Counted from the stretch's first letter, positions 2,924-29,806 are shown. The stretch is 32,000 nucleotides of DNA from Desulfobulbus propionicus DSM 2032 (GCF_000186885.1 NC_014972.1:1890001-1922000); one strand, 5' to 3'. Program-made: numbers and translations. Notes: generated from the letters alone by a model not told the origin.

Positions 2924-3000
2924 CGGGAAGTGGCTCAGTCTGGTAGAGCACAGCGTTCGGGACGCTGGGGTCGGAGGTTCGAATCCTCTCTTCCCGACCA
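2924..3000 (+). tRNA. tRNA-Pro (anticodon CGG), with CCA encoded
   Basis: Cloverleaf read by hand. Acceptor CGGGAAG/CTTCCCG; D-arm GCTC/GAGC; anticodon stem CAGCG/CGCTG with loop TTCGGGA (anticodon CGG); T-arm GGAGG-TTCGAAT-CCTCT; then A-CCA. Very close to E. coli proK. Confidence 0.95.
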
Positions 3001-18360: not shown

Positions 18361-21297
18361 ATGAAAAAATCGCAGCAACCCACCATCACCGCAACCGATG
18401 ATTTTGAGGATTTGACGCTTTTTGCCAACGAATCCTTCGACACCCAAGACGTTGACCTCTTTGAGTTCACCAGTGAAGAGTCGTCACCTTTAACCCGATT
18501 GAAATCCATCATTCTTTCGCTCGACTGGGAAATCAATGACGAAATTTTGCAGGAATTGGCCGATGAATTGGATAACTTGCAGTCCATGTGGCAGGGAGAT
18601 AAAGTCGCGGAAGTTTATTTGCAGGGACTGAGCAAGATAGGAAGTTACATTCGTACCAAAGGAGCCTATGCGCATCCCAATTCCATCAAATTACTCCTCA
18701 CTTTTTTCTATAATTTCGAGAAAATTATCTCTTCCGAACAGATAACCGGCGAACAAATCACCCAGTTGCTCAAGGGCGATATTCGCAAATTTAAAATCCT
18801 TCAGTATCAAATCAATCAAAGTGAAGACTCTTCGATTCCGCCCGTCGAAAGCACCTTTGAACCGAGTCCGCCCACGCCGGACATAACTGCTCCTTCCACC
18901 GAACCGAGTTCGGCAAAACAGCTGAAAGCCGCCATATTGAGCCTCGATTGGGAGGTGACGAACGACAGCCTTGCCCAGTTTCACACAACACTCGCCAGTT
19001 GTCATCAACTGATGGCCGACAACAAGCCGGCGCTCGTCTTACTCCAAGGGTTACAGGCATTGGGCGATTATATCGCCGAAGAGCGCGCGGACGCACACCC
19101 CGAAGCCTTCACCCTGCTGCATTCGTTCAATGAAGGCCTGGAGCAGGTGACCAGAACAGACGGCCAGCGTCTTGATCAGGCCAGCATTCAAGATCTTCTT
19201 GTTGACCGGGTCAATCGCCTGAACACGTTGAAGATGCTGATCACCGCACCGGTCGCTCCCCCGGTCGACGAGCATTTCATCGATGAAGTTGTCGAGGAAA
19301 TCAGCACCGCCGCTCATCAAGACGAGACGGCTTCCGAGCGCCCATCGTTGACCGTGGAAGCGTCTCCCGTTGATGCTCTGTCGCAGGAGGCATTGACGAT
19401 CGACCGCGATCTCCAGCTGCCGGGAGACGCGTCTGCGACCGATGATCTTGAGGCGGAAATCGATACGCTGTTTGCCCTCAACGCCACTCCGGCAATGGAA
19501 ACGGCTGATCTGCAATATCCCGATGAAATCCTGCCGCCGGAGGCCATTCATCCTGTCGACGATGAGCTGGCAGACGATTTCATCGAGGCCCACCTCAGCG
19601 CCAATCGTGGTCTGATGCCGGCCTTGTCCGACATCGACGGGCAGTCCGAGTATCCCCAGGAGAGGAGCGTGGGCGATTTGCCAATGGAAAGCGATCTCGC
19701 CGAACAACTGGATGTTCTCTTTGCCGAAACCGACGGCCAGGAATACGCTGAACCGGCTTCAAGCTCCGTACCTTTGGAAGACGGGGTCGCGGCCAGCGAG
19801 TTCAACGAGAACGAACCAATTGCCGCCCTTGCCGATATCGACATCGACGAACAAGCCCCCTTTGGCACCGCATTGCCGACAGAGGACCTCTTTGTCCTGG
19901 AAGCCGAGGAGAGTGATCACGATCAGCAGAGTCTCGACATCGAGGGCACACTGGACAAGTTCTTTGCCGAAGGAGAGGAAGAGCCTCAACTGTCGATGAT
20001 AGCGGATACCGTTGACGAAGAGTTCGGCCAGCCCCTCGCTTTCGAGGAGGAAGGCGGCCTGCACGCCGCCTTGACCGACATCCCAGCAAGGCAGGGGGCG
20101 GAACAGGAGGAACCTGTCCTGTCCTTCGAATTCGCGCCAGCCGACGAAATATCGTTCGATGAGCACCAGCCGATCGTGGCCCTTGCCGATGCTGAACCGC
20201 CTCCCGATCAGTTTGCCTTGGAAGCCTCGGGAGGTGAAGACGATCAAAACTCGTTAGACCTGCAAAACAAGCTGGACAGTTTCTTTGCCGATGTGGCCGA
20301 AGAGCCCGCCGAGACGGTGGCGGAGGAACCAGATGGGGAAGCAATCGAACAACTGACCCTTGCCGATCAGGAAATCAGCCCGTCCGCCTTGGCCGACATT
20401 CCGGAAGAACTCGGCTTCGAGGAAGAAGAAACGCCTCTAGAGGTGGTGCCAATCGCTGAAATTGAAGAAAAACTCGATTTCTTCTTTGGCACGGAGGCAG
20501 AGGAACCGGACGTCGAGGGGGAAACGTCTCTTGATGCAGCCCTTGCATCGATGGCCGAAACTGCGCCGGCGATTACCCCGGCGTTGCAAGAGATCGTCTC
20601 CTCGGCAGTTCCCGAGGAGGAAGAAGACGCCCTGGCCGCGATCGCGAACGTTGATCTGCCGGAAACCGAACTCGAAGAGGCCCTTGATTTGTTCTTTGAT
20701 GCGGAGCAAGAGGAAACAAAGAAAGAGCTCGAACCACTGGCGGCCGACGAATTGACCGAGGCCCTTGAGGCGGCAACCCTTGGCGATGGGGTGATCGGCA
20801 CGCTGGACGACGACAAGCAGATGCATCTGGCCGCGCTGGGGGCCTTGTTGCCCCTGGTGGTCCGCACGCCCTCCCGTGAAAAAATGGCTGAAGCCGCTGA
20901 GATGATCGCCACCCTTCATCAAGCGGGGCTGTCCAGTGAACAGACTGCCCTGCTCCGCTTGCTGGAATCGGTGGTCTCCATGCTGATGCGTCTTCCCGCC
21001 CACGACAACGCGGCAACCGAAAAGCTGGTCAATTATCTTTATGAACAGCTGCTTCGCCCTTCGTGTCCTCCCGACGTTCTGCCGAACGCGATCAACCGCT
21101 TTACCGGCTGGTTGCAGCAGGCAAGCAGTCTCATGCCGCTTGTTCCAGCGGTCACTGCCAGCGACGAGGGAAGCAAGGAACAGGAACCGTCATTCACCTA
21201 CACCGCCAAGGATCTGTATTTCGAACTTGCGGCGTTACGAGGGCAAATCAAGGAAGAGTTTGCCAACGTGCGGCATGCCTTGAAGCATCACCATTGA
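18361..21297 (+). CDS. 978-aa polyacidic multi-repeat protein of unknown family (candidate scaffold/effector of the MglA/MglB-like pair)
   Basis: A long uninterrupted ORF starts 36 nt after the GTPase gene and is closed by a strong terminator. Its internal protein-level repeats would not be maintained in a non-coding frame. I recognise no known domain. Confidence 0.85.
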   Translation: MKKSQQPTITATDDFEDLTLFANESFDTQDVDLFEFTSEESSPLTRLKSIILSLDWEINDEILQELADELDNLQSMWQGDKVAEVYLQGLSKIGSYIRTKGAYAHPNSIKLLLTFFYNFEKIISSEQITGEQITQLLKGDIRKFKILQYQINQSEDSSIPPVESTFEPSPPTPDITAPSTEPSSAKQLKAAILSLDWEVTNDSLAQFHTTLASCHQLMADNKPALVLLQGLQALGDYIAEERADAHPEAFTLLHSFNEGLEQVTRTDGQRLDQASIQDLLVDRVNRLNTLKMLITAPVAPPVDEHFIDEVVEEISTAAHQDETASERPSLTVEASPVDALSQEALTIDRDLQLPGDASATDDLEAEIDTLFALNATPAMETADLQYPDEILPPEAIHPVDDELADDFIEAHLSANRGLMPALSDIDGQSEYPQERSVGDLPMESDLAEQLDVLFAETDGQEYAEPASSSVPLEDGVAASEFNENEPIAALADIDIDEQAPFGTALPTEDLFVLEAEESDHDQQSLDIEGTLDKFFAEGEEEPQLSMIADTVDEEFGQPLAFEEEGGLHAALTDIPARQGAEQEEPVLSFEFAPADEISFDEHQPIVALADAEPPPDQFALEASGGEDDQNSLDLQNKLDSFFADVAEEPAETVAEEPDGEAIEQLTLADQEISPSALADIPEELGFEEEETPLEVVPIAEIEEKLDFFFGTEAEEPDVEGETSLDAALASMAETAPAITPALQEIVSSAVPEEEEDALAAIANVDLPETELEEALDLFFDAEQEETKKELEPLAADELTEALEAATLGDGVIGTLDDDKQMHLAALGALLPLVVRTPSREKMAEAAEMIATLHQAGLSSEQTALLRLLESVVSMLMRLPAHDNAATEKLVNYLYEQLLRPSCPPDVLPNAINRFTGWLQQASSLMPLVPAVTASDEGSKEQEPSFTYTAKDLYFELAALRGQIKEEFANVRHALKHHH
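18487..18810 (+). repeat. Helical domain copy A1 (aa 43-150 of the 978-aa protein)
   Basis: LTRLKSIILSLDWEINDEILQELADELDNLQSMWQGDKVAEVYLQGLSKIGSYIRTKGAYAHPNSIKLLLTFFYNFEKII... Confidence 0.8.
18910..19242 (+). repeat. Helical domain copy A2 (aa 184-294)
   Basis: AKQLKAAILSLDWEVTNDSLAQFHTTLASCHQLMADNKPALVLLQGLQALGDYIAEERADAHPEAFTLLHSFNEGLEQV... is colinear with A1. Shared elements: LK..ILSLDWE, LLQGL...G.YI, AHP, LL..F. Confidence 0.8.
19456..20703 (+). repeat. Array of six acidic L-D-x-[FL]-F-[AGD] motifs alternating with A-L-[AST]-D-I motifs in a polyanionic, probably disordered region
   Basis: EIDTLFA (19456-19476), QLDVLFAE (19705-19728), TLDKFFAE (19948-19971), KLDSFFAD (20269-20292), KLDFFFGT (20470-20493), ALDLFFDA (20680-20703). 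Interleaved with MPALSDIDG, PIAALADIDID, HAALTDIPA, PIVALADAEP, PSALADIPEE, DALAAIANVDLPE. Confidence 0.8.
20818..21060 (+). repeat. Probable third, diverged copy of the helical domain (aa 820-900)
   Basis: QMHLAALGALLPLVVRTPSREKMAEAAEMIATLHQAGLSSEQTALLRLLESVVSMLMRLPAHDNAATEKLVNYLYEQLL lines up with A2 at L.AA.L.L, HQ, ALL..L, AH and L..Y/F..L positions. The similarity is weak and was aligned by eye. Confidence 0.5.
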
Positions 21298-23499: not shown

Positions 23500-23952
23500 T
23501 CAGGAAATTCTAATGCCGCCGATGAAATCGTGGTCGTCCTTTTCCATCACGCCCCTTCGCTGCCGTTCCGGCCCGCCACGGAGAGACTGCCGCTCTTCAA
23601 CCTGTACCTGGTCGGCGACCGCCGGTGTGCGCACGGGCATGGCCGGTCGGGGTTCCCTGCTGATCGGCGGGGCGATGGGCGGCAGCACCGGTTCGCTCGG
23701 ACGTGGTGGTTCCACCGCTGCCCGTTCCTTGGGCTCCCGTTCCCTGATCTTGCTGGTGACAGCCTCTTCCTGGGCCGGTCGTTTCAGAAAAGCCAGCAAG
23801 CCGTCCTGGAGCAGCGACACGTTCACCAGTTCCCAGGATTGACGCCCCATCTGGTTGAGGGTCTTTTCCATTTCCTCGTCGTCGACATATCGGTCACCCA
23901 ACAATCCATCCTTGGTGAACTCAAACAGTATGGTCCGGTATTGCCACAACAT
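23500..23952 (-). CDS. DUF4177-like small domain protein with a Pro-rich C-terminal extension (tentative)
   Basis: Start MLWQYRTILFEFTKDG...MEKTLNQMGRQSWELVNVSLL (23952), preceded by AAGGAGAGG. The M.-YK...G.-GWELV pattern matches DUF4177 as I recall it. The tail is PPRPSEPVLPPIAPPISREPRP... Confidence 0.65.
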   Translation of the reverse strand: MLWQYRTILFEFTKDGLLGDRYVDDEEMEKTLNQMGRQSWELVNVSLLQDGLLAFLKRPAQEEAVTSKIREREPKERAAVEPPRPSEPVLPPIAPPISREPRPAMPVRTPAVADQVQVEERQSLRGGPERQRRGVMEKDDHDFIGGIRIS

Positions 23953-24099
23953 CTTTTCCTCTCCTTGCCTTATCGTGTTCTCTGGAGCTTCAACGCGTCG
24001 CATCCGACCTTGGATGCGTGCTGTTCTTCGCATCCTTGGAAAGCCGCGTCCCGAAGACGCATCGTCCGGGTGGATAATCAGCGAATGTTAAGCCGTTTT

Positions 24100-25819: not shown

Positions 25820-26344
25820 TCAGCCATGGTTTTTCGGATAATCAAAAAACAGGAGAGTGCCTGCGCCCGCCGTCAATTCCCGCCAGGAAGCGAGGGCGAA
25901 CTCCAGGGCCACGATACCGCTGGTGGGGATGTTGTCGATCGCCAACCCCCCAAGCATATTAGCCAACGCCGTGCTCTCCGGGTTATGACCGACCAGCAGC
26001 AAGGTGTGGACCGCAGTGGCCGCCGTGTGCACCAGGCCGAGCAGTTGCGGCACCGTGGCCGTGTATTGGATCGGGTTGTATTGCAGGCGGGCAAGGGGAT
26101 AGCCCAATTGGGTCGCATAGTGGACTGCGGTGGCCTTGGCCCGCGCTGCCGGGCTGGCCATGATCAGATCCGGCCGAATACCGCGTCGCAGCAGCCGTCT
26201 GCCCATTTCCGGCGCGTCTCGCTGGCCGCGCTTGTTGAGCGGGCGGTCGAAATCACCCAGCGTCGCATCATGCCAGCTTGATTTGGCATGGCGGCAAATC
26301 AGCAGCAGTCGCTGTTCAACGGGGGAGGTGTTCACGGATCTCAT
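25820..26344 (-). CDS. sixA: SixA-type phosphohistidine phosphatase (histidine phosphatase superfamily, branch 1)
   Basis: Start MRSVNTSPVEQRLLLICRHAKSSW (26344). RHA.S catalytic motif, DRPLNKRGQRDA, and LLLVGHNPE (second catalytic His). The start overlaps the end of the ParA-like gene by 29 nt. The longer tracked ORF from 26428 is rejected. Confidence 0.8.
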   Translation of the reverse strand: MRSVNTSPVEQRLLLICRHAKSSWHDATLGDFDRPLNKRGQRDAPEMGRRLLRRGIRPDLIMASPAARAKATAVHYATQLGYPLARLQYNPIQYTATVPQLLGLVHTAATAVHTLLLVGHNPESTALANMLGGLAIDNIPTSGIVALEFALASWRELTAGAGTLLFFDYPKNHG

Positions 26345-27059
26345 GCCACAACCGTTGATAGGAGAGGGCGGCGGTCGAACCGGGCAGGGCGGCGGCCACC
26401 GGCTGCCGGTACACCCCCATCCGCTCAATATCCGCAGAGTAAGGGATGGTGCTCTGTAGAACCCCGGGCCGTTCCCGAAGAGAGTGCATCAGCTCGGCAT
26501 GCATCTTTTTCCGTTTCTCGACCATGGAAAAAAAGAAGCGTATCTTGTCGTGCCCGTGGCCTATTTCGTCAAGGAAGGCAAATAGCTGGTCCAGGGACAG
26601 CAACGAAAGGGTGGTGGGAATCACCGGCACCAGGATGACATCGGCGGCGTAGAAAATGTTCTCCGACAACAGGGTCAGATTGGGCGGACAATCGAGAATG
26701 ATCCGCTCGTACTCCTCCTCCAGCGGTTGCAGCACCTTGCTCAGCCGTTTCTGCGACTTTTTGCATTCGTCCAGGGCAATGTCGATGTTGCGGTAGGAAA
26801 AGTCGGCAGGCAGCATGTCAAGGCCTGGATAATCGGTGCCGCGGATATTTTCCTCAATGTGCCTCCCCCCCTTGAGCAGCTTTTTCGTGCTGAATTTTTC
26901 CGGCGAGCGGATGCGGAAATAAAAGGAAGCCGATCCCTGCGGATCCATGTCGAGCAACAGGGTTTTGCCGTGCTCCCGGGATGCCAGGTAGGCAAGGTTG
27001 ACCGAGGTGGCGGTTTTCCCTACTCCGCCCTTGATGTGGTACACCGCCAGAACGCTCAT
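26316..27059 (-). CDS. Orphan ParA/MinD-family P-loop ATPase (deviant Walker A)
   Basis: 247 aa. MSVLAVYHIKGGVGKTATSVNLAYLAS...TLLLDMDPQGSAS...RIILDCPPNL...ADVILVPVIPT. No ParB-like gene and no parS-like repeat is nearby. ATGA overlap with the CHAD gene. Confidence 0.9.
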   Translation of the reverse strand: MSVLAVYHIKGGVGKTATSVNLAYLASREHGKTLLLDMDPQGSASFYFRIRSPEKFSTKKLLKGGRHIEENIRGTDYPGLDMLPADFSYRNIDIALDECKKSQKRLSKVLQPLEEEYERIILDCPPNLTLLSENIFYAADVILVPVIPTTLSLLSLDQLFAFLDEIGHGHDKIRFFFSMVEKRKKMHAELMHSLRERPGVLQSTIPYSADIERMGVYRQPVAAALPGSTAALSYQRLWHEIREHLPR

Positions 27060-28609
27060 GCGGATGCCTCGTGTTTGCGGAAGAGGTCGTGGACCAAGGT
27101 GGTCGTTTCCTGATCGATAAACAGGTCGAAGGCCTCGGCGAAATGGTCGCGCAATTCCCGCTGCTCCAGAAAGAGGCTCTGCATCAGGCCGCCAAGAGCC
27201 GCCGCCTGGGCGAGGTCACGACGCGATCCGGCGCCCATCTTTTCCAGGGTTTGGCGGAGCATGTCCTGCTGCACCGAGAGATCGTTGAAATCGCCCAAAA
27301 TATCCTGCAATTTCTTCAGATGCCGAACCACCACCTGAATATCCTCCCGTGGATAGAGAGAGCTGAAAAATTCGATCGCGTAACGCAGTTTCTTGCATTC
27401 GATGCGCAGGCGATGCACTTCGCTGTCCGGGGTGGCGGCATTCAGGGCTTGACCATCGCGCAGTACCCGTTTGTAGCGGCGGAAAATGATCCGGCTGGCC
27501 AGCTCCTTGACCGGCGTTTCCGCCAAGGGGGCCGGCTGTCGGTCGGGGCGGTGCAGGCAACGATGCCAGGCGGTCAGGATCGCCCGGTTTTTTTTCGCCC
27601 GCAGGGCACGAGCCAGCTTGGTCTGTTCCACCTGGCGCTGAAGGGTCAGATCGGCGAAGAAGGCGCTCAACCCCGGTTGCAGGGCCGGCGGCAACCGATT
27701 TAAATAATTTGTTTGGTTGAGCAGGTAAACGTCGAGATCGCGGGTCGGTCCGGTCAGGCCGCCCAGCAAGCCGAAATCCCTCTTGAAGCGTTCGGTCACC
27801 GGCTCGGGCAAGACCTTTTTCACCAGGCTGAGACCGGAGCGAGTGCGGCGGATGGCCACCCGCAGATCGTGGAGGAACTCGCTGTCCCAATCGTTCACCA
27901 CACCAGGGAGGTTACGGGTGATCGTGTCGAGCAACGCCTGATAGATCCGGGTCATGGCCTGGCGGGCGGTAGAGTCCGGATCGAGTTCCAAGGAAAATTT
28001 CGAGGTATAATCCAGCGGCTGGCGGCCAATGACGCGGCAAGCCTCCACGAAACCGATGAGGGGCGAAGCGATCTGGAGCACTCCGTTATCCTCCAGGATA
28101 CGACGGGTACGAGCCAATTCCTGGGTGTAGCCGCGCACGGGGAACAACCGCACCAGCCGGAACGCCGTGTCCAGCCCTTCCGGTTGCTGACGCTCGACCA
28201 CCAATCGGGCCACGGTTTTGTCATCCTGGTTGAGCAGCCGGAACTGACGGCCGCTCAGAGACACCGTTGCCAAAGGCAGCAGGCAACGGATGCCGAGTAT
28301 CGGTTCCAGCATTTCCCGCAGTTGGCCAGGGGGAAAATCCTGGGCGAAACAGGGTGACTTCAGCTCCGGCCCTCCTTGTTGCAGGGTAATGGCGCAACTG
28401 TCGCCATGGTACAGGGTCCAGCAGGAACCGTGGCTGTGCAGCAAATAGCCTTGCTGATAGAGCCGCCAGTCAAAGGAATCGGCATAGACAACCCTGGCCG
28501 CGTATTCGGGCGCGCTCGCGCAGCGGAACTCCCGCGCCAGGGCAGATAGCAGCGTGTCAAGCTGCAGCGCGTCGGGGAGTGACCAGGTATCCGTGCCGAG
28601 CTGTTCCAT
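27056..28609 (-). CDS. CHAD-domain protein with an N-terminal CYTH-like region of about 200 aa
   Basis: 517 aa. The C-terminal two thirds carry the conserved-histidine helical repeats of CHAD: FLHDLRVAIRRTRSGL, VHRLRIECKKLRYAIEFF, LQDILGDFNDLSV. The N-terminal region has YADSFDWRLYQQGYLL, reminiscent of the CYTH Y.DTPD..L motif, but I find no N-terminal ExExK. Confidence 0.85.
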   Translation of the reverse strand: MEQLGTDTWSLPDALQLDTLLSALAREFRCASAPEYAARVVYADSFDWRLYQQGYLLHSHGSCWTLYHGDSCAITLQQGGPELKSPCFAQDFPPGQLREMLEPILGIRCLLPLATVSLSGRQFRLLNQDDKTVARLVVERQQPEGLDTAFRLVRLFPVRGYTQELARTRRILEDNGVLQIASPLIGFVEACRVIGRQPLDYTSKFSLELDPDSTARQAMTRIYQALLDTITRNLPGVVNDWDSEFLHDLRVAIRRTRSGLSLVKKVLPEPVTERFKRDFGLLGGLTGPTRDLDVYLLNQTNYLNRLPPALQPGLSAFFADLTLQRQVEQTKLARALRAKKNRAILTAWHRCLHRPDRQPAPLAETPVKELASRIIFRRYKRVLRDGQALNAATPDSEVHRLRIECKKLRYAIEFFSSLYPREDIQVVVRHLKKLQDILGDFNDLSVQQDMLRQTLEKMGAGSRRDLAQAAALGGLMQSLFLEQRELRDHFAEAFDLFIDQETTTLVHDLFRKHEASA

Positions 28610-28621
28610 GGCTCACATGCC

Positions 28622-29806
28622 TCAACTCCGGTAATCGGCGTTGATCTTCACGTAATCATAGGAAAAATCGCAGGTATACATTTCGGCCTCGCCCTCGCCC
28701 TCGCTCAAGTCGATCGTGACCGTGAACTGACGCTGCTTGAGAACCGCGGTGGCAGCTGCCTCGGCCTCGGCTCCGGTGTACAGGCCGTTTTCCACCAGCC
28801 GAACCGCGTCGAAGCTGATAGCCACCCGATGCTGATCAAAGTGGCATTGGGACCGACCCAGGGCGGCGATGATCCGTCCCCAGTTGGCATCCTCGCCGAA
28901 AAAGGCGGTCTTGACCAGCGGCGAGTTGGCGATGGTGCGGGCCGCATCGAGCGCCTCCTGATCGGTGCGCGCGCCGGTCACCCTGATGGTCACCATTTTG
29001 GTCGCTCCTTCGCCGTCGGCCACGATTTTCAGCGCCAAGTCCTTGAAAACCCCGCTCAAGGCCTCGCCAAACAGGCGGGCCTCGGGCCGATCAGGATCAT
29101 CGATCAGGGCGTTGCCAGCCTCGCCGTTGGCCATGACCAGGACCATGTCGTTGGTCGAGGTGTCGCCATCGACGGTGATCCGATTGAAGCTCCGTTCCAC
29201 CCCGGATTTGACCAGCCGGTCGAGCAGCGGATAGGCGATGTGCGCATCGGTGACCACAAAGCAAAGCATGGTGGCCATATTGGGCATGATCATCCCTGAA
29301 CCCTTGGCCACGCCGAGAATCGACACCTCGGCATCGTCGAACAGCACCGTGGCGGTGGCCACCTTGGGTACCAGATCGGTGGTCATGATGGCGCGGGCAA
29401 GCTCTTCAAAGCCGTCTTCGGACAGTTGCGCCACCAACTGCGGCATGGCCTGGGCAAAAGGTTCGGTCCGCAACTGCTGGCCGATCACCCCGGTCGAGGC
29501 TACCTGCACCAGCGATTCGTCGATTCCCAGTTCGCGCGCGGCCAAAGCACTGGTGGCTTGAGCCAGATCGAGCCCTTCCTGGCCGGTGCAGGCGTTGGCA
29601 TTGCCGCTGTTCACCAGCACCGCCTGGGCGCGGCCCGAACGCAAACGTTCCATGTCGAGCAGGAGAGGCGCGGCCTTGACCCTGCTGGTGGTGAAGGTGC
29701 CGGCGGTGACCGCCGGGGTCCGAGAAAAAATCATCCCAAGATCAAGCCGGCCGGCGTACCGGATTCCGGCGGCGACCGCAGCTGCGGAAAATCCTTTTAC
29801 CTGCAT
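28622..29806 (-). CDS. argJ: Bifunctional ornithine acetyltransferase / N-acetylglutamate synthase
   Basis: 394 aa. GFSAAAVAAGIRY..RLDLGMIFS, VLVNSGNANACTG, AKGSGMIMPNMATMLCFVVTD (autoprocessing site around the MATML Thr), ITVDGDTSTNDMV, FGEDANWGRI, and an ending of ...INADYRS. Confidence 0.95.
   Translation of the reverse strand: MQVKGFSAAAVAAGIRYAGRLDLGMIFSRTPAVTAGTFTTSRVKAAPLLLDMERLRSGRAQAVLVNSGNANACTGQEGLDLAQATSALAARELGIDESLVQVASTGVIGQQLRTEPFAQAMPQLVAQLSEDGFEELARAIMTTDLVPKVATATVLFDDAEVSILGVAKGSGMIMPNMATMLCFVVTDAHIAYPLLDRLVKSGVERSFNRITVDGDTSTNDMVLVMANGEAGNALIDDPDRPEARLFGEALSGVFKDLALKIVADGEGATKMVTIRVTGARTDQEALDAARTIANSPLVKTAFFGEDANWGRIIAALGRSQCHFDQHRVAISFDAVRLVENGLYTGAEAEAAATAVLKQRQFTVTIDLSEGEGEAEMYTCDFSYDYVKINADYRS

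Follow-up and report, generated by a model that had tools for sequence, protein, structure and literature searches.

Desulfobulbus propionicus DSM 2032 encodes a CHAD-domain protein and a ParA-like ATPase in two overlapping genes, and comparison of this locus with its relatives shows that the two genes are obligatorily paired and translationally coupled in many phyla. The pair is located in a stretch of 32,000 nucleotides (NC_014972.1:1890001-1922000), which was analyzed at its full length and is hereafter called the window. On the minus strand of the window, the CHAD gene (27056-28609; an open reading frame of 517 residues with a Pfam CHAD match) is followed by the ParA-like gene (26316-27059; an open reading frame of 247 residues with AAA_31 and CbiA matches), and the stop codon of the former and the start codon of the latter share the four nucleotides ATGA (27056-27059, minus strand). 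What is the biological function of such a pair? Its association with polyphosphate is strongly supported, and we hold it to be highly probable. Furthermore, we propose by analogy that the pair may be a positioning module for polyphosphate granules, with the ATPase as the motor and the CHAD protein as the adaptor, a reading to which we give about an even chance. Among candidates for an ATP-dependent apparatus of granule placement, the pair is at present the strongest.

The association of the two genes is evident from their neighborhoods in other genomes. We scanned one genome per species with two peptides of the ATPase family, PADFSYRN and FSMVE[KR]RK, and kept the best 80 of more than 551 relatives, which are 51-86% identical to the window ATPase. 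In all 80 loci, the gene that immediately precedes the ParA-like gene, in the same orientation, encodes a full-length ortholog of the 517-residue CHAD protein. These loci come from Desulfobulbaceae/Desulfobulbales (including a Candidatus Electrothrix cable bacterium), Desulfobacterales, Nitrosomonas, Chlorobium, Chromatiales and Sedimenticolaceae, and also from candidate division KSB1, Calditrichota, Verrucomicrobiota (Verrucomicrobia and Victivallales), Dadabacteria and Microthrixaceae/Acidimicrobiia. The CHAD gene is likewise directly upstream in loci obtained by exact protein look-up, including that of the cultured acidimicrobial species Rhabdothermincola salaria; L085 and L086 are among the loci obtained in this way. 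The four-nucleotide overlap of the called CHAD and ParA-like genes recurs in L004, L085 and L086, which include Acidimicrobiia, R. salaria among them. As a control, we used 64 generic ParA loci, a by-product of a metagenome scan with generic Walker A patterns, whose ATPases score 96-157 bits against the family profile. None of these 64 loci has a CHAD gene within 6 kilobases (kb). The CHAD/ParA arrangement is thus far beyond chance (80/80 versus 0/64).

Among nine metagenome loci with an ATPase of at least 300 bits (L087-L095), the CHAD gene is upstream in eight. The ninth, L089, is the sole exception found. L089 is a 1.7-kb contig with a high content of guanine and cytosine (GC), in which a family-type ATPase gene (442-1302; 332 bits) is preceded by 444 available nucleotides that contain no CHAD gene; the motifs of this ATPase (LWDLDPQ and FFSMVDRRKRLH) resemble those of a branch fused to a CYTH domain, which is described below.

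The genes that flank the pair are wholly different among lineages and encode, for example, succinate dehydrogenase, a methyl-accepting chemotaxis protein, ABC transporters or acyl-CoA dehydrogenase; therefore, only the CHAD/ParA pair itself is maintained. No third gene is conserved beside the pair across the 80 loci. A SixA gene lies directly downstream of the ParA-like gene in 34 of the 80, mostly in Desulfobulbaceae and in two Nitrosomonas loci, and argJ lies upstream of the pair in 28, all of them Desulfobulbaceae-like. What is conserved is thus the pair of CHAD and ATPase genes and not the trio of CHAD, ParA-like and SixA-like genes, which a preliminary description of the window had put forward as a candidate module. 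The pair withstands this comparison and is distributed over about ten phyla; SixA is an accessory, and the argJ linkage is a lineage-specific synteny outside the module. The pairwise distances of the CHAD protein and the ATPase correlate with r = 0.87 in a mirror-tree comparison made without phylogenetic control, a value that is compatible with co-inheritance and is not used as evidence for physical interaction. One protein of 710 residues (P0415) was considered as a CHAD-ParA Rosetta-stone fusion and discounted, since its Arg/Cys-rich junction is typical of a frameshift.

The CHAD protein provides the first of three independent lines that link the pair to polyphosphate, the others being the neighboring genes and the sister branches of the ATPase. 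The long CHAD domain occupies residues 201-510 (27080-28009, minus strand), and Pfam CHAD (PF05235) matches residues 222-452 with an E-value of 4.6e-62 and 210 bits, against a gathering cutoff of 25.6. CtCHAD of Chlorobium tepidum (3E0S/6QV7) is the closest solved CHAD relative (phmmer E 6.8e-61). The AlphaFold2 model of the 517-residue protein has a predicted local distance difference test (pLDDT) value of 92.5 and matches the CtCHAD-polyphosphate complex (6QVA) in Foldseek with a template modeling (TM) score of 0.94 and 38% identity. In CtCHAD, mutations of His253, Arg256, Arg260, Arg296, Arg418/Tyr419, Arg438 and Lys441 lower polyphosphate binding (PMC6537752). These contacts (H253/R256/R260/R296/R418-Y419/R438/K441) align to H247/R250/R254/R290/R409-Y410/R429/K432 of the window protein, and the aligned residues are mostly invariant or near-invariant in the family, R429 not being among those listed. 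Judging from this alignment, the window CHAD domain should bind polyphosphate. Both polyphosphate binding and granule localization have been established experimentally for CtCHAD and other CHAD proteins (PMC6537752). Moreover, over its full length CtCHAD shares 49-50% identity with the CHAD proteins encoded beside a ParA-like gene in three Chlorobium loci, and the crystallized protein very probably belongs to the same ParA-linked CHAD subfamily.

Which kind of ATPase accompanies the CHAD protein? Pfam assigns it to AAA_31 (E 8e-37) and CbiA (E 4e-16). The deviant Walker A motif KGGVGKT, to which the preliminary description had drawn attention, is indeed present at residues 10-16 (27012-27032, minus strand), with K10 as the signature lysine and K15 as the catalytic lysine, and it does not vary among 81 members of the family; the same is true of D37/D39 of Walker A' and D123 of Walker B. 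In the family alignment, the predicted ATPase is shown to keep all catalytic and dimerization motifs of ParA/MinD proteins. When 1.84 billion representative proteins were searched exhaustively, with clusters at 50% identity, 388 clusters were obtained at E<=1e-30 versus 8,487 at E<=1e-10; the ATPase therefore belongs to a discrete subfamily, whose motifs are PADFSYRN and FSMVE[KR]RK (FSMVEKRKKMH). Unlike MinD-type proteins, the window ATPase has no C-terminal amphipathic membrane-targeting helix: the last core helix spans residues 229-242 of 247, and no extension follows in a family whose lengths are 242-254 residues.

The predicted fold of the ATPase is Soj-like (AlphaFold2 and Foldseek; TM score of ~0.8 to 8RAY, 2BEK and 6IUB at 25-28% identity), and the source records carry the names 'ParA family protein' or 'chromosome partitioning protein'. 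Both features would suit an ordinary chromosome or plasmid partition ParA that adjoins a CHAD gene by chance. However, neither a ParB gene nor a parS site is nearby. Annotation of the window with Pfam and NCBIfam gave neither a ParB gene nor any gene of a Min, flagellar or chemotaxis system, no parS-like site was detected in the window with up to three mismatches allowed, and no repeat array was found there, in agreement with the preliminary description, which had listed all of these partners as missing. Among NCBIfam models, the ATPase falls under every curated cutoff, including that of NF041546 ParA_partition (85 bits versus 180). A partition identity was rejected on the lack of ParB and parS and on the subthreshold score, and chance adjacency is already contradicted by the 80/80 and 0/64 counts given above, so that this explanation deserves next to no credence.

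The neighborhood of the pair offers the second line toward polyphosphate. Of the 48 loci that lack the argJ-type synteny, 17 have a Pfam-confirmed gene for PPK1, PPK2, Ppx/GppA or a stand-alone CYTH protein at a distance of 6 kb or less (PPK1 in 10, PPK2 in 7, stand-alone CYTH in 9 and Ppx/GppA in 3). The stand-alone CYTH neighbors have an intact ExExK motif and are usually encoded right after the ATPase gene (directly after it in 7 loci), and the three Ppx/GppA genes stand immediately before the CHAD gene. The clusters can be extensive, with the gene order SixA-PPK1-CHAD-ParA-PPK2 in L056 and L058, PPK1-CHAD-ParA-CYTH-SixA in L057 and SixA-Ppx-CHAD-ParA-CYTH-SixA-PPK1 in L060. The connection of the CHAD protein with polyphosphate, which the preliminary description had drawn, is upheld both by an ortholog-level relationship to a crystallographically proven binder and by these clusters of polyphosphate genes, which occur in lineages far apart.

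The third line comes from the sister branches of the ATPase. In at least nine of the best 150 representatives, a linker rich in Pro and Ala joins a ParA-like ATPase to a C-terminal CYTH domain (P0374, P0386, P0413, P0422, P0445, P0450, P0471, P0489 and P0503; alignment A4; 504-544 residues). Some of the fused CYTH domains have ExExK (ELEFK, EIEFK or EVEFK), and others do not. The metagenome scan with generic Walker A patterns returned no locus with a ParA-CYTH fusion. In L096 (3869-6759), ppk1 is followed after a gap of 5 nucleotides by the gene of a 252-residue ATPase (286 bits), a slightly more distant member of the family, and the vicinity is devoid of a CHAD gene; L096 is a 1.3-Mb metagenome contig.

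Several single observations were made around these loci. P0362 (561 residues) combines a ParA-like ATPase that is 53% identical to that of the window with a HAD domain of the sucrose-6-phosphate phosphohydrolase type and may represent either a genuine fusion or a chimeric assembly. In Desulfogranum japonicum (L001), a PPK2 gene (950-1855) is located ~4.4 kb upstream of argJ-CHAD-ParA-SixA, past cls and a metallophosphoesterase gene; the equivalent position falls past the end of the window (32000). A sensor histidine kinase with HAMP-HisKA-HATPase architecture (c40) recurs near the pair in L061, L074 and L075 (Calditrichia) and in L042, L045, L073 and L080, and a Mg transporter of the CNNM/CorC type (c75) recurs in L071, L072, L077 and L080. 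The kinase and the transporter may represent regulatory or cation-homeostasis ties to polyphosphate.

How could the two proteins place a granule? The CHAD protein would coat the granule surface via its CHAD domain and would present its N-terminal domain, a degenerate CYTH fold, to ATP-bound dimers of the ATPase, which would reside on a polyanionic matrix, for which the nucleoid is the most likely choice. Hydrolysis of ATP, once stimulated, would then release the ATPase locally and create depletion zones, and the granules would move up the resulting gradient, remain separate and regularly spaced, and be inherited by both daughter cells, in a manner comparable to carboxysomes under McdAB. Such a mechanism of motor and adaptor, already advanced in the preliminary description, is also what we infer. 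If correct, the pair would be the first system dedicated to the ATP-driven positioning and segregation of polyphosphate granules, composed of a distinct ParA subfamily and an adaptor with CYTH-fold and CHAD domains, a claim for which we consider the chances to be evenly balanced.

With respect to the matrix, the non-specific DNA-binding patch of TtSoj consists of R182/R194/R208/R211 (PMC6393308). In the window ATPase, R183 aligns with TtSoj R182, is invariant and forms part of the conserved EKRKKMH cluster, which contains an extra KRKK. On the basis of this alignment, DNA (nucleoid) binding by the ATPase is plausible.

With respect to the adaptor, the N-terminal domain spans residues 1-200 (28010-28609, minus strand) and was assigned to the CYTH fold by Foldseek on the AlphaFold model. 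The preliminary description had named CHAD, CYTH, ParA/CbiA-type ATPase and histidine phosphatase domains, and Pfam confirms CHAD, AAA_31/CbiA and His_Phos_1; for the N-terminal domain, it gives no match, including CYTH, even at E<=10. The CYTH fold of this domain is visible in structure prediction and not in sequence. Its fold matches are YgiF (5A60; E 1.4e-8), 2GFG and thiamine triphosphatases (~E 1e-4) with TM scores of 0.52-0.62, along with SaTTM, and the matches to this eight-stranded tunnel fold range overall from E 1e-8 to 7e-3. An hhalign comparison of the domain with the stand-alone CYTH neighbors was not significant. The first strand reads TWSLPD (DTWxLPD in the family) in place of the catalytic ExExK, and invariant charged residues are few (D44, D47, R108 and R159). 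Furthermore, the rate of evolution is higher in the N-terminal domain than in the CHAD domain, and higher by a wide margin than in the ATPase. As modeled, the N-terminal domain is a degenerate, probably non-catalytic CYTH fold and is a candidate for a ParA-contact or ligand-binding domain.

Several points weigh against a positioning role. The ATPase family is known from genes and models alone, and confidence in the ATPase model is only moderate (pLDDT 79). Among the remaining positions of the Soj patch, R195 is variable, Y207 is mostly Tyr in the family and D210 is a well-conserved Asp. The CHAD protein lacks the disordered basic N-terminal peptide seen in partners such as ParB, McdB and MinE, and its residues 1-15 are acidic and unconserved. 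As quoted in a 2026 study, deletion of phosins, be they of this or of another subfamily, caused no gross granule change in other bacteria (PMC13081873). Finally, the CYTH fusions and the direct ppk1 linkage suit an enzyme-regulating role equally well.

In such a role, the ATPase would be a regulatory switch whose ATP-dependent dimer recruits or gates PPK1, PPK2, PPX or a CYTH triphosphatase at the granule via the CHAD protein, and no positioning would be involved. The ATPases BcsQ, FlhG/FleN and MinD, which organize enzyme complexes, furnish a likeness. Given that the Soj patch is kept only in part and that CYTH enzymes are fused to the ATPase, several of them with an intact ExExK, a regulatory or enzymatic function has to be considered, and the ppk1-parA-like operon of L096, which is devoid of CHAD, and the 7 loci in which a stand-alone CYTH gene immediately follows the ATPase gene favor it as well. 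However, the pair also occurs alone, far from polyphosphate enzyme genes, in many lineages; several of the fused CYTH domains lack ExExK, which suggests binding instead of catalysis; and the nearest fold relatives of the ATPase are partition ParAs. We regard the switch as the main rival, a possible but unlikely explanation.

A further alternative retains the granule and exchanges the matrix. Polyphosphate itself could be the matrix of the ATPase, bound through the EKRKKMH patch, and the CHAD protein would activate hydrolysis, such that the two proteins control the size, fission and coalescence of granules. The conservation of the basic KRKK cluster, while other Soj DNA contacts are replaced by Tyr or Asp, and the recurrent fusion of the ATPase to CYTH domains, which bind phosphate chains, speak for such a mechanism. 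However, no ParA is known as a polyphosphate binder, and the basic cluster contains the very Arg that Soj uses for DNA. This alternative appears quite improbable to us.

One of the closest known counterparts of the proposed positioning module is McdA/McdB, in which a small orphan ParA-type ATPase is likewise encoded beside a cargo-specific partner in the absence of ParB/parS. In both cases, the cargo would be a membrane-less storage or metabolic body, and the expected logic is a Brownian ratchet on the nucleoid. The two systems differ in their partners, given that McdB is disordered and the partner here is a folded CYTH-like and CHAD protein of 517 residues, as well as in the cargo, which here would be polyphosphate. 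Beta-cyanobacterial McdA has no signature lysine, unlike the window ATPase, and the similarity of McdA (6NON) to the window ATPase is weak (E 1.9e-9). Neither McdB nor carboxysome operon neighbors were found in the window or in the fetched loci. Chromosomal ParA/Soj proteins are the best match in both fold and sequence and have in common with the window ATPase the deviant Walker A motif and an Arg at the position of Soj R182/R189, but the window ATPase differs from them in the lack of ParB/parS, in the loss of three of the four DNA-patch residues and in its membership in a separate subfamily with its own motifs.

On the side of the granule, the CHAD protein resembles phosins (Ralstonia eutropha PptA, CtCHAD and Escherichia coli YgiF) in having a CHAD domain with conserved basic polyphosphate-binding residues, and it shares with YgiF the order of a CYTH fold followed by CHAD. 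In contrast to YgiF, its N-terminal domain lacks ExExK, and a triphosphatase activity of the YgiF type is unlikely. It also differs in having a ParA-like partner gene in all 80 loci fetched with the ATPase, a pairing that was not considered in phosin work. AlgP of Pseudomonas aeruginosa and PhaM/PhaF/PhaH also space storage granules, there by nucleoid linkage, but these are single, passive DNA-binding tethers with histone-like tails, whereas a two-protein ATPase system is predicted here.

The adjacency itself has been seen before. A conserved folD-ppk-parA-CHAD neighborhood was drawn for Acidithiobacillus in 2019 and 2024 (PMC6416229; PMC10892726), and it is the same kind of ppk-parA-CHAD neighborhood as observed here. 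Both papers label the ParA as a chromosome/plasmid partition protein and draw no functional conclusion (PMC6416229; PMC10892726), and phylum breadth and ATPase subfamily specificity were outside their scope. Full-text searches for CHAD together with ParA-like ATPases retrieved nothing besides these papers, and none proposes a function. The preliminary description knew of no characterized ParA-CHAD pairing, and none was found in these searches, but the synteny was already on record; in the papers searched, the system has been neither recognized nor characterized.

How bacteria place polyphosphate granules and pass them on is an open question, for which the pair supplies a concrete, testable hypothesis. 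A 2025 review of organelle positioning names AlgP as the sole factor for polyphosphate granules and states that energy use remains to be seen (PMC13052382), and a 2026 study describes the mechanism of granule placement as undefined in E. coli and Caulobacter (PMC13081873). According to reviews, no ATP-dependent system that positions polyphosphate granules is known, which we count in favor of the proposed positioning role. In Synechococcus elongatus, polyphosphate placement is independent of McdAB, which contains the only ParA-family ATPase of that organism (PMC13081873). If the positioning reading is true, polyphosphate granules would be a new class of cargo and the CHAD protein a new type of adaptor for the ParA/MinD positioning family, the long-enigmatic CHAD phosins would acquire a function, and the system would operate in cable bacteria, nitrifiers, green sulfur bacteria and Microthrix-like phosphate accumulators among about ten phyla. 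The hypothesis can be tested in organisms relevant to phosphorus removal, nitrification and sediment biogeochemistry.

In the window, the pair is followed by the SixA-like histidine phosphatase gene (branch 1; 25820-26344, minus strand; an open reading frame of 174 residues with a His_Phos_1 match), whose 5' end overlaps the 3' end of the ParA-like gene by 29 nucleotides (26316-26344, minus strand). Its ATG is at 26344, and an alternative GTG start is located three codons downstream. The protein matches His_Phos_1 with E 3.7e-9 and scores 43.3 bits against SixA TIGR00249, below the cutoff of 74.5. The closest solved structure is a putative SixA (2RFL; E 2.7e-13), to which the catalytic RH motif (R17-H18, in RHAKS) and VGHNP (H119) align. 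Close homologs (E 1e-27 to 1e-45) are encoded a few kb from the pair in the ppk1/ppk2 loci L055, L056, L057 and L060, and SixA is elsewhere found next to ppk1. The SixA-like enzyme is an accessory member of polyphosphate clusters and would belong to one polyphosphate regulon with the pair. PPK1 works via a phospho-histidine intermediate, which is therefore a candidate substrate on which the SixA-like phosphatase may act.

Upstream of the CHAD gene and co-oriented with it, argJ (28622-29806, minus strand; ArgJ PF01960, E 1e-147) is separated from it by 12 nucleotides. The coordinates confirm the layout given in the preliminary description, in which three overlapping minus-strand genes, joined by the ATGA and 29-nucleotide overlaps, follow argJ at this distance. 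The run of four genes is flanked by a divergent cls gene (cardiolipin synthase) and by avtA (valine-pyruvate transaminase). A promoter and terminator scan gave nothing that exceeded the shuffled expectation. PADLOC models gave no match for the CHAD, ParA-like and SixA-like proteins, and an anti-phage defense reading was dropped on this result.

Elsewhere in the window, the segment 17000-21297 contains a stretch in which GC content falls to 0.42-0.47, compared with ~0.60 elsewhere, and after it a 978-residue open reading frame (18361-21297, plus strand) that has no Pfam match; the low-GC stretch and the open reading frame may be horizontally acquired DNA. A 177-residue open reading frame (23500-24033, minus strand) has no Pfam match and reaches 24.6 bits, under the cutoff, with the NCBIfam model Sp36, and a weak DUF4177 protein occupies a similar position in Desulfogranum (L001). 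The sole Rfam match in the window is a tRNA gene (2924-2997, plus strand; RF00005, 65.5 bits).

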